Below, in pieces: positions 10,155 through 56,287 of a DNA stretch of 64,000 nucleotides. The notes under the pieces are model-generated. The model was not told the DNA's origin. It saw only the letters and a list, made by a program, of their open reading frames with translations, and did not search any database. Positions within the stretch are counted from its first letter, which is position 1, and every line of letters begins with the position of its first letter. The position numbers and the translations under genes were made by a program. This DNA comes from Eledone cirrhosa (lineage: Eukaryota), in NCBI GenBank assembly GCA_964016885.1, contig OZ024747.1, positions 76,570,001 through 76,634,000 of the forward strand. Direction: 5' to 3'.

Positions 10155-10438
<284 letters not shown>

Positions 10439-48599: not shown

Positions 48600-48745
48600 T
48601 GGGGGGAAATGGCTTAGTGGTCAAAGCATTGGGTTTGCAATCGAAAGGTTGTGAGTTCAATTCTCGGACCGGTTGATGTGTTGTTTCCTTGAGCAAGACA
48701 CTTTATTTCACGTTGCTCCAGTTTACTCAGCTGTAGAAATGAGAT
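48600..48745 (+). mobile_element. CORE-like SINE
   Basis: tggcttagtggtc (A box), gagttcaattc (B box), ccttgagcaagacactttatttcacgttgctccag...cagctgtagaaatgag. Confidence 0.8.
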
Positions 48746-49447: not shown

Positions 49448-49537
<90 letters not shown>

Positions 49538-49775
49538 AGGAGGTTATAGTTCACTAGAAGCATTGTGTAATGAGGTATAAACGTTTGAATATGTATAATA
49601 AAGCCAAAACAATGCAGGTATGGACATAGAAAAAAGAATGCAATTACAAAAGATATTGTTGACAATTCGTCCTTTACCTTAGATTTATTTAAATGTCCTT
49701 AATTTTCGAGATAATATCTCTTCTTCGGAGGGAAATAAAGGTCTCAAACCAGCGTTCTAAATATCTTGCCAAGCC

Positions 49776-50252
49776 AAGCTCCCACACTTCAGTGTAGAAA
49801 CAACAACAGCCATCCGCAGAGCCATCAGACGAGAGGGACTAGATATCCAACTGGCCCACTCAGGTCCTTCTCTACGCGGACAGCTAACCAAAAGACACTC
49901 CACCAGACATGACAACTGCTGCAGACTAGCCAACTGCCCCATCAACGACACAGACCTATGCCACCAGGCTTACGTCGTATACAGACTAGAGTGTGACAAA
50001 TGCAACAGCTTCTACGTAGGTAGCACCACCAGACCACTCCACATAAGAATAAAAGAAAACCTCAATACTAACGCTTCCTCATTTAAGAAACACCTAGTTA
50101 AATGCAAAAACACCGACAAAACCATAACAGTTAGGATCGAAACTAAGGAAAGAAACCTCGGCAATCTTAGAATTAAGGAAGCACTAATTATAGATAAAAC
50201 ACAACCACCAATCAATAATAGACTAAAACTCAACACCCAATTTATAACCTGA
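49776..50252 (+). pseudogene. PLE C-terminal linker and GIY-YIG endonuclease, 158 open codons without a start
   Basis: KLPHFS...CRLANCPINDTDLC...VVYRLECDKCNSFYVGSTTRPLHIRIKE...KH...LRIKEALII...PPINNR. Confidence 0.9.
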
Positions 50253-50622
50253 TAGTGCTTCTAGCCCCATATTTACACACCCCACGCACACACACGCTCA
50301 CACCTCCACTTATTCTCTCTCACACATTCACACACAAAACCAGTTCTAACACCAGATAACACCTATCCCCCACATTTACGAATAGACTTAACTTCTCACA
50401 CTCACACACACTCACATACTTACACCTTCATGCATTCTCCCACACACTTAAACAGGCATGTATATAAAAAAAAACCTAAACAAACCCCTTTTAAAGGGAG
50501 ACTACTCTTTATCCACCTAATTTTAACTCTTTGACATTAGAGATAGAACAGATACTCGATACTATTTCCTGTCAGCATGGCTTGGCAAGATATTTAGAAC
50601 GCTGGTTTGAGACCTTTATTTC

Positions 50623-50657
50623 CCTCTGAAGAAGAGATATTATCTCGAAAATTAAGG
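50623..50657 (+). ncRNA. Minimal hammerhead ribozyme in PLE terminal repeat
   Basis: CCT-CTGAAGA-a-GAGAT att ATCTC-GAAA-AT-TA-AGG; palindromic AATT stem III; the inverted copy near 49700-49735 carries CCGAAGA. Confidence 0.6.
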
Positions 50658-50799
50658 ACATTTAAATAAATCTAAGGTAAAGGACGAATTGTCAACAATA
50701 TCTTTTGCAATTGCATTCTTTTTTCTATGTCCATACCTGCATTGTTTTGGCTTTATTATACATATTCAAATGTATATATATATATATATATATATATAT

Positions 50800-53862: not shown

Positions 53863-53910
<48 letters not shown>

Positions 53911-53912
<2 letters not shown>

Positions 53913-54459
53913 TAAAACATGTCTATAGAATCACCAGATAAAATATATACCGTTTCCTCTCCCAATTAGCATAATTAACCATATAAAAAATCAATTAGAC
54001 CAAGCTATAAGAATAAAGGCTCCTATGAAGAAATCTCCGACAAATAACCGAAAGCTGCCCCTTCGCGGCGGTTGCGACGGAGTATTTATCGAGTATTTCG
54101 ACAGCGTGTATAAATCGACCAGATATACAGTCAACTAAACAGAATAAGGTGTAAAATAAACTAGAAGAAAAGTGTACATATTTAATTACCTCTACCATGG
54201 TTTCATCCGCATTTTAAGACATCCGATAACATTGGATATCTAGAGCTTCGGATTCTTCAGGGAGTTTGCTCAAATTTAGACAATTAATTTTCCAAAGTGA
54301 TCGCGCCAAGAATACATTAAAAAATGGCTAAGAATAGTGACGTGGCAGCGGTCAAGTTAGAAAGGATGTGATTAGTTGCTTACGGCTGGTAGGCTTTTTG
54401 CTAGAAAGCGCAGCCCAATACAGCCAAAATTGTATCTCAACCTAACGGGAGATTATTAC
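53911..54459 (-). mobile_element. PLE-like HHR-bearing element, copy 1
   Basis: Flanked by (TA)n; 53911-54191 is inverted-homologous to 54636-54918. Confidence 0.8.
54188..54265 (-). ncRNA. Type I hammerhead ribozyme with extended stem II
   Basis: actcc-CTGAAGA-ATCCG...(agatatcc/ggatgtct hairpin)...CGGAT-GAAA-CCATGG-TA-gaggt; palindromic ACCATGGT stem III, GUA triplet. Confidence 0.8.
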
Positions 54460-54476
54460 ATATATATATATATATA

Positions 54477-54999
54477 TAAAGTCATAAATATATATGTGTT
54501 TTGCAACGGGTCACTTTGTGGCTCAATGAAGAATTAATAAATTAAATAATCAGAGCTATATATCATAAAACATATCTATAGAATCACCAGATAAAATATA
54601 TACCGTTTCCTCTCCCAATTAGCATAATTAACCACAGGTAATTAAATGTGTACACTTTTCTTCTAGTTTATTTTACACCTTATTCTGTTTAGTTGACTGT
54701 ATATCTGGTCGATTCATACATGCTGTCGAAATATTCGATAAATGATCCGTCGTAACCGCCGCGAAGGGGCTGTTTTCGGTTATTTGTCGGAGATTTCTTC
54801 ATAGGAGCCTTTATTCTTATAGCTTGGTCTAATTGATTTTTTATATGGTTAATTATGCTAATTGGGAGAGGAAACGGTATATATTTTATCTGGTGATTCT
54901 ATAGACATGTTTTATGATATATAGCTCTGATTATTTAATTTATTAATTCTTCATTGAACCACAAAGTGACCCGTTGCAAAACATATATTTATGACTTTA
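54477..54999 (+). mobile_element. Copy 2 of the same family: inverted 3' end (54477-54634) followed by forward copy (54636-54999)
   Basis: Direct comparison of the arms; flanked by (TA)n. Confidence 0.85.
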
Positions 55000-56287
55000 T
55001 ATATATATATATATATGTAAACCTTTATATATATATATATATATACGAAGCCGAATTAGTTTGGCCTTCCATCCAAAAGGGATCAATTTAATAAAGAACC
55101 AGTTATGAACTGGGGTCCATTATGTAATAGATATTTTGTGTAAACAGATTAGTATTCTACATAATAAATGTTAATTGTAACCTAATTCCAAATAAAACGA
55201 GGAGAAAGATTTTTGTTTGAGATGGTACGTGAAAATTCGGTTCAATATGTTAGATATTTCTATAAAGTACTTCTCCAAGTACCTCATAAAATGTGTACTG
55301 GTGATAACATTTAAACATTTCCGGGGGCGGGGGTGTCATCAAAGTATCGTCTTCGCAGGTGTGGAGGGATATTATTGCTCTTTTATGTAGGGCAATATAG
55401 GCTTGACTATAAATCGGTCGATATCGAAATGGGCAACACCTTTGTCATTGAGATTCCATAATACCTATCCAAGAATATATTGTTCACTTTTTCATTATTC
55501 CAGAAGATAAAGTATTTCATTATTCCAGAAGATAAAGGCTTTGAAATTGCTCTGGCACATTTCTATGTACATTTTTTTTTTGGGGGGGGGGGGGGGGGGT
55601 TACCCGCCACCCATTATGTGTGTAACTTTACTCTCGTATATAATTTATGTTTTAGTATTTGCTATGAAGCAGACAAGATTCGTTCGTCTCGTTAGTTACA
55701 TTTCACTGCCTATATATTCTGGTTGAGCCATTATAATTTGCTCATTAGTGTGCCCCCGAGATGTTTCATGCAGTTGCACATGATATGGTATTGTGTTATC
55801 GAATAACTTATGCTACTTGTCGGAGAAAAAACGTCTATGTATATTCAATTCTACAATTTGCTGTAGGCAGGGTAAATTAGATAATGAGGCTTTACAATGT
55901 CTGTTTCCTTGCTGCTTGCACTATGGTAGGAATGTGATATTTTTCTTTAAACACTTCTTATTTTCTAATGATTGACAGACTTGATAAAGTTGGTCCTACC
56001 TAAAGATGTATCATGTAATCTTTTTGTCTGGTGTGAGGTTTGTTTTTTATATGTAAATAAGCAAATAAGTCAAACATGTAAATCTGAACGTAAATATACT
56101 TAGAACAACAGCAGAGTAATTACTGACTGTCCCTATATGTATATAATATACTCCGGGAACAAAGCCGACAACAACAAAATCACTGAGGGTCTAAGACCAT
56201 TGAATTTATTAGGTAAGTTATATTTTATTATATTGCATTTTTTTCTATCTTATTGGGGGTTTTCTATACGTGTATAGTCTTATGGTG

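Follow-up and report, generated by a model that had tools for sequence, protein, structure and literature searches.

The window, by which we mean the whole stretch of 64,000 nucleotides analysed, contains a single insertion in which two arms stand head to head; both derive from a 657-bp non-coding tandem unit that carries a type I hammerhead ribozyme. The best explanation, to which we give a probability of roughly 0.72, is one insertion of this hammerhead repeat in which a borrowed Penelope-type reverse transcriptase made both arms and the short arm stopped at an end cut by the ribozyme. Across the genome, copies of the repeat end at two fixed 3' sites, inverted pairs show one site per arm, most arms read through the predicted cut, and in sister subfamilies 5' junctions are in excess at the cut itself.

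Anatomy of the insertion

Positions along the unit are numbered from the predicted cut, the G of GAGG being 0. The features of the locus, in coordinates of the window, are the following:

53868..53910, unstranded: (TA)n target microsatellite, E1 end
53911..54634, minus strand: long arm, which enters at about +210 of one unit, passes the unit boundary and an uncut hammerhead, and stops at E1 (+286), the upstream one of the 3' end sites
54186..54266, minus strand: type I hammerhead, with the predicted cut between 54193 and 54192
54266-54261 and 54260-54254, minus strand: stem I 5' strand, and CUGAAGA (CTGAAGA in DNA)
54253-54249 and 54209-54205, minus strand: stem II, ATCCG / CGGAT, around an inner hairpin
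54204-54201, minus strand: GAAA
54200-54195 and 54194-54193, minus strand: stem III with palindromic loop (ACCATGGT palindrome), and UA
54192, minus strand: G at which the predicted 3' product starts
54635, unstranded: head-to-head junction, a lone C between the arms, untemplated or mismatched
54636..55026, plus strand: short arm without ribozyme, which begins at unit position +1 (1 base past the predicted cut) and stops at E2 (about +390), the downstream one of the 3' end sites
54917..55026, plus strand: tail of about 104-110 nt from E1 (TTTTATG) to E2 (AAACCTTT), at this end only
55027..55045, unstranded: (TA)n target microsatellite, E2 end

The minus-strand sequence from 54634 to 53911, which an earlier note on this DNA had divided between two neighbouring copies, aligns to a natural tandem copy as one 730-nt piece spanning the unit boundary. 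The same note described copy 2 as preceded by an inverted copy of its own last 160 nt. The arms are indeed inverted (288 nt at 97%, 174 nt at 93%), but the segment is the 5' continuation of copy 1 and not a repeat belonging to copy 2, because the same continuity recurs upstream in most of the 30 best relatives. A snap-back origin of the second arm is rejected for this locus, as neither arm is contained within the other. Two contig sets aligned to the region yielded nothing further about the junction.

The plus-strand arm has a length of about 390 nt, reaching 55026, and begins AGGTAATTAAAT at 54636, 1 base beyond the predicted cut, just where the earlier note had placed it. Taken alone this coincidence is weak evidence for cleavage, since every part of the unit has 5' ends, at a rate of about 3 per 1000 nt of arm. 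We consider it reasonably probable that this +1 junction reflects a cut RNA end.

Repeat family and tandem arrays

The family was searched in the window's own 3.0-Gb genome, which gave 3959 candidates; 40 of them were scored and showed 96-97% identity. For most of the 30 best loci, what was first taken as the tail of copy 2 lies directly upstream of copy 1, and the repeat is therefore a circularly permuted tandem unit. At C4:42.644-42.667 Mb (L061-L063) about 35 units follow one another in a tandem array whose period is near 657 bp. Its variants show higher-order repetition, and its first unit has lost the hammerhead through a deletion that stops at the cut site, where there is a GAG microhomology. 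The sister subfamilies, which are about 73% alike, show the same period of about 657 bp and at least 1242 half-motif matches; an array of a sister subfamily, of about 30 kb and with this period, lies at C1:92.986-93.016 Mb beside an inverted arm.

The element shows no protein coding capacity, its longest stop-to-stop frame being 72 aa, and arms extended in the 5' direction run into the preceding unit and not into an open reading frame. Among 397 pieces, 93 are longer than one unit, in a set where 30 of the loci were chosen for long matches. A type I hammerhead is present in consecutive tandem units, a feature by which non-LTR retrozymes are recognised. By these testable features, and as known here from genome sequence alone, the element is a non-LTR retrozyme, and the retrozyme class named in the earlier note is borne out by the tandem units with hammerhead and without coding capacity.

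Hammerhead ribozyme

All of the hammerhead motifs reported earlier are present at their coordinates in the minus-strand sequence, and the core elements CUGANGA, GAAA and NUH are found in type I order. The ribozyme had been called complete, which holds for the core motifs but not for the stems: the window copy has a private mismatch in stem I, with 4/6 pairs formed. Its stem I 5' strand, AACTCC, gives a C.A mismatch adjoining the core and occurs once among the tabulated haplotypes, versus 26 AACTTC relatives sharing stem II. In the minimum-energy fold of the window copy the hammerhead is not formed. The Rfam Hammerhead_1 model gave no match in the window at the gathering score, and the best of four loci reached 20.2 bits against 34; the long stem II insert may lower this score.

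In the family as a whole the core is intact in 99 of 121 own-subfamily copies and also in the sister subfamilies, and the CCAUGG palindrome and the core letters are conserved between subfamilies that are 73% alike. According to the haplotype tables, the base of stem II is G-C, A-U or U-A, three Watson-Crick types across subfamilies, and the stem I pairs, 5-6 of 6 in five haplotypes (6/6 in the sister types, 5/6 in the window's types), are re-formed across subfamilies. These tables, from which covariation was read directly, suggest that selection acts on the hammerhead fold. Of 121 own-subfamily copies, 34 have an A.C mismatch at the stem II base, and impaired ribozymes therefore spread well.

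The form of the ribozyme differs from the minimal type that the earlier note mentions for Penelope-like elements. The minimal hammerhead of Penelope elements has a stem III cut down to the core pair, without a loop (Cervera 2014), and the canonical metazoan form has a short palindromic stem III and works in dimers, as described in PMC4209133. With a stem III of 2 bp and a palindromic loop of 4 nt, the hammerhead analysed here is of the canonical metazoan type I.

Fixed 3' ends and pairing of the arms

The census of ends included 236 distinct loci, which remained of 261 once multiple entries for a single place had been removed; neither arrays nor the reference locus were included. These loci comprise 129 head-to-head insertions, 94 single copies and 13 others. 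The 3' ends of their 397 pieces lie at E1 (+286) in 194 cases, at E2 (about +390) in 154 and elsewhere in 49. E1 and E2 are about 104 nt apart, and copies end there in (TA)n, which makes target-site duplications illegible. Within the 129 pairs, 100 show one E1 and one E2 end, one shows E1 twice, one shows E2 twice and 27 have an unclassified end, so that one of each is found in 100 of the 102 pairs with both ends classified. A motif-based recount found one E1 and one E2 in 68/74 cases of the 236-locus set and in 39 of 40 pairs in 140 sister loci. One site per arm is thus a near-strict rule. A negative correlation between arm lengths was discounted as a likely by-product of how the loci were anchored. 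The insertions show a tail at one end, an inverted 5'-truncated arm, partial tandems and microsatellite targets, as expected of a Penelope-mobilised element.

Junction positions in the window's own subfamily

The own-subfamily sample contains 202 pieces with their anchor in +81..+108; one variant contributes all of its 99 matches and another 103 of its 237. After 11 apparent duplicates were collapsed and the window arm was dropped, 190 pieces remained. About five of the 11 collapsed events, which lie at -296, at -312 or between inverted arms, were probably distinct events, and in the 0..+36 interval the only collapsed event is L164/L165, which are true duplicates. Position +1 is reached by 151 of the 190 arms, 148 of these 151 continue beyond -5, and 125 retain the whole ribozyme. 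The proposal that the cleaved RNA is itself the usual template is not supported, given this read-through.

Arms ending at 0/+1 number 3 of 151, against 0.87 expected (P 0.058), and inverted joins alone give 3 against 0.48 expected (P 0.013). The best 37-nt interval, a width picked afterwards, starts at 0 and contains 30 ends against 15.6 expected, with a scan P of 0.12. In the genome-wide count for this subfamily, the -2..+1 interval shows 8 of 385: the window, one array deletion and six others. The +4..+7 interval shows 12 matches, comprising nine arms in eight events, two that start at +1 and one point mutant, and the -14..-11 interval shows four matches, three of them true. The excess at the cut in this subfamily is suggestive only.

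Junction positions in the sister subfamilies

For the sister subfamilies the whole genome was searched with patterns in which the conserved GG or CC is lost and 23 conserved bases follow; the cut interval and two controls were run together, and three further intervals were added later. The denominators, 966 and 1139, include array units. In the cut interval (-2..+1), 21 of 23 matches were true after inspection of the loci, which corresponds to 21 of 966 arms: 14 junctions are at G0, two at -1, two at -2 and three at +1. The control intervals gave 7 true junctions in 10 matches (-14..-11), 3 in 6 (-6..-3), 8 in 9 (+15..+18) and 15 in 17 (+63..+66). Against these four controls the cut interval is in excess with P = 5e-5 (Poisson) or 7e-4 (conditional binomial). 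G0 alone has 14 junctions versus 1.9 per control position, and versus the highest control position, +64, with 8 junctions, P is 0.03.

The +3..+6 interval was planned as a control and was set aside only after its high count of 57 matches, of which 26 of the 30 inspected are true, mostly ATATA joined to (TA)n; if it is counted as a control, the cut interval is no longer clearly above the control mean, and the G0 peak stays. We read these joins, post hoc, as trimmed cut ends, because a comparable TATAT at +70, used as a control for TA microhomology, gives few: 6/1139 among the matches listed. In the same listings, perfect TA joins are 28/966 at +3..+6 and 4/1139 at +70. Junction rates fall at once upstream of the cut. 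The 14 arms starting at G0 have mixed flanks, mostly non-TA, and in several of these cases the partner arm likewise ends within 30 nt of the cut.

The rough excess near the cut in the sister subfamilies amounts to 80 arms, about 8%, and it is likely that about this share of arms copied a cut RNA end. When 5' junctions are plotted across copies, as the earlier note had proposed, a peak at the GUA site stands out in the sister subfamilies and is weak in the subfamily of the window. One sister variant (L411-L433) provides 15 of the 23 cut-interval matches but, counted by eye, 35 of the first 100 listed; these post hoc counts hint that subfamilies differ in cleavage.

Autonomous Penelope-like elements

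Autonomous elements with a reverse transcriptase (RT) and a GIY-YIG domain are present in the genome. One such family is termed Poseidon-like because it lacks the Neptune-type CxxC linker, according to the definition in PMC8557442. It has two ends about 43 nt apart, and among 30 loci all 5 of its 5 inverted pairs show one of each end. The window itself contains part of an autonomous Poseidon-like element, a 3' fragment with two arms at 49536-50772, with the GIY-YIG end at 49764-50249 (94% to the L313 protein). This fragment shows a minimal hammerhead at 50626 (plus strand; CUGAAGA and a palindromic AAUU) and, on the minus strand at 49728, a mutated copy; one of its arms stops at the short site and the other bears the 43-nt tail. 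Neptune-like frames of 938, 844 and 1096 aa, stop to stop, with RT, CxxC linker and GIY-YIG, are found in L301, L302 and L303, and a motif search showed no hammerhead near them. A type I hammerhead with CUGAUGA, a hairpin stem II and a 4-bp stem I is located at L310:6978-7030 in an unrelated AT-rich sequence ending in (TA)n, which may represent another family of retrozymes or Penelope elements.

A partner of the 657-bp unit was sought through a shared terminal repeat, and the comparison with 45 GIY-YIG loci and one Poseidon 3' UTR gave nothing significant. The Poseidon-type family and the unit have only short end motifs in common, and an equal score was reached by 31 of 200 shuffles. In L284/L312 a GIY-YIG copy lies 1.2 kb upstream of a unit, but it was rejected as the partner: it looks like a shared (TA)n target, because 14 of the 236 loci adjoin that flank repeat and the inspected units start at differing positions. 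The unit often lies in (TA)n beside the repeat that follows the GIY-YIG frame in L284 (L284, L142, L162), and several (TA)n-targeting families accumulate at the same sites. In the window, a 5S rRNA copy at 10156-10274 (minus strand) abuts (AT)n, and at 48610-48667 (plus strand) there is a tRNA-like piece that scores at threshold and may be the head of a SINE.

Origin of the insertions

The preferred explanation includes several steps. Tandem arrays would give rise to transcripts, some of which the hammerhead would cut, probably with two copies joined as a dimer by their palindromic stem III. A Penelope enzyme would then nick both (TA)n strands, one cDNA starting at E1 and the other at E2, as might be the case if a dimeric enzyme primed both target strands. 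In the window, it is likely that a borrowed Penelope-type reverse transcriptase made the two arms in this way, priming from both (TA)n strands, and the short arm probably stopped at the RNA end cut by the ribozyme. Most cDNAs cross the ribozyme site, so their template would be a re-ligated circle or an uncut multimer, and about 8% would run off the cut 5' end and be joined exactly or after microhomology loss of a few bases. A circular RNA has been proposed as the template of retrozymes (PMC7229834) and an uncut multimer is described in PMC11167929; the read-through and the pieces longer than one unit fit both alike, and these data do not separate the two. One natural unit folded as a circle gave -137.6, versus -131.6 (sd 5.2) for shuffles, and is not much more stable. 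A wider version is tentative and less likely than not: the insertions would be a fossil record of the whole retrozyme cycle, in which a dimeric Penelope enzyme acts on a cut and re-ligated 657-nt circle with one subunit per start site on opposite (TA)n strands, the rule would extend to autonomous Penelope elements, and the share of arms at the scissile bond would measure in vivo ribozyme activity for each subfamily through evolutionary time.

An unlikely alternative keeps the same element and route and attributes the excess near the cut, without any cleavage, to stalling of the reverse transcriptase at the folded hammerhead together with AT-rich palindromic microhomology. Positions 0..+40 are 75% AT, many of the +3..+6 joins connect ATATA to (TA)n or are fold-backs at a local palindrome, and in Poseidon cleavage was dispensable in vitro (PMC11167929). 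Against it, perfect TA joins at the comparable TATAT at +70 are the rarer by far in the counts given above, and the flanks of the 14 G0 arms are mixed and mostly non-TA; a stall would be expected at the outer end of stem I, at +6 or beyond, rather than at the scissile bond, and rates drop immediately upstream of the cut.

Two further readings, both very improbable, concern the identity of the mobile unit. The earlier note regarded the cleaved RNA of about 360 nt as the transposed unit, with copy 2 as a separate insertion bearing an inverted terminal repeat, and the short arm does span the sequence from the cut +1 to the fixed 3' end, with similar arms elsewhere. The distance from cut to cut is 657 nt, however, which is the size of the unit, and the short arm is a partial copy ending at a fixed priming site; 148/151 arms cross the cut, 93/397 pieces exceed one unit, and the supposed inverted repeat is continuous with copy 1. 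In the other reading an autonomous Penelope-like element would have the unit as its terminal repeat, and the copies would be 5'-truncated remnants of that element. The tail, the inversion and the partial tandem, an architecture known from Penelope-like elements (PMC8557442), would suit this, as would a Penelope protein fragment within about 1.5 kb at 17 of 391 loci. Against it, 5' extensions enter the previous unit and not an open reading frame, the nearby protein fragments are of more than one family and are found on both sides of the unit, pure arrays exist, and alignment with one Poseidon 3' UTR showed no significant similarity to the unit.

Significance of the junctions

The role of the hammerhead in Penelope-like elements has been called unclear (PMC8557442), and evidence for hammerheads in vivo has been noted as lacking (PMC4209133). 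A base-precise excess of junctions at the predicted cut is an indirect sign of cutting in the germ line and of copying of the cut RNA, and the read-through indicates that most templates were not cut at this site. Judged from the genomic copies, the excess likely records self-cutting of the RNA in the germ line, with about nine of ten copies running through the site. The Penelope-type ends lend support, through the anatomy of the insertions, to the earlier suggestion that animal retrozymes are moved by Penelope enzymes, and the one-site-per-arm rule provides a model that can be tested for how the inverted insertions typical of the Penelope class arise. If the fossil-record reading is true, ribozyme activity would be readable from the genome alone for any hammerhead-bearing Penelope family. 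The kind of element is already known; the parts of interest are the family-wide junction excess and the one-site-per-arm rule.

Comparison with known systems

The literature search, made on main texts, found no junction map for hammerhead elements. The closest relatives are the non-LTR retrozymes of animals (PMC7229834; bioRxiv 10.64898/2026.07.22.740005), which share the non-coding tandem unit with one type I hammerhead and a short palindromic stem III, the low GC content, the presence of both arrays and dispersed copies, and Penelope-like elements in the same genome. The link between retrozyme-type repeats and Penelope elements is already published in these two works. The unit of 657 bp is larger than the 150-450 bp given by Cervera and de la Pena 2020 (PMC7229834) and falls inside the range of 51-972 bp of Li, Clavereau and Pollet 2026 (bioRxiv 10.64898/2026.07.22.740005). 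The present analysis maps where the copies end, their tail, their two-armed form and the junction peak at the cut, whereas the consulted text of those two works contains no map of insertion junctions.

Penelope-like insertions (Craig et al. 2021, PMC8557442; Anolis Poseidon, Frangieh et al. 2024, PMC11167929) show the same partial tandems, inverted 5'-truncated arm and tail at one end, as well as (TA)n or AT-rich targets, two fixed start sites of reverse transcription and read-through of the hammerhead. In Poseidon in vitro, two internal start sites define the tail, insertion was independent of cleavage and no RNA reads ended at the cut (PMC11167929). The element described here differs from Penelope-like elements by the lack of an open reading frame and by its tail of about 104 nt, compared with 30-40 (PMC8557442, PMC11167929). 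It also differs from Poseidon by the near-strict pairing of one start site per arm, where no strand difference is described in vitro, and by a junction peak at the cut, where that study found no RNA reads ending (PMC11167929). R2 elements with a 5' HDV-like ribozyme resemble the present case in that the ribozyme cut coincides with 5' junctions of the element (PMC3774820). The ribozyme and the element class are different in R2, and in Drosophila R2 the cut defines the 5' end of the element, while here it marks fewer than one in ten arms.
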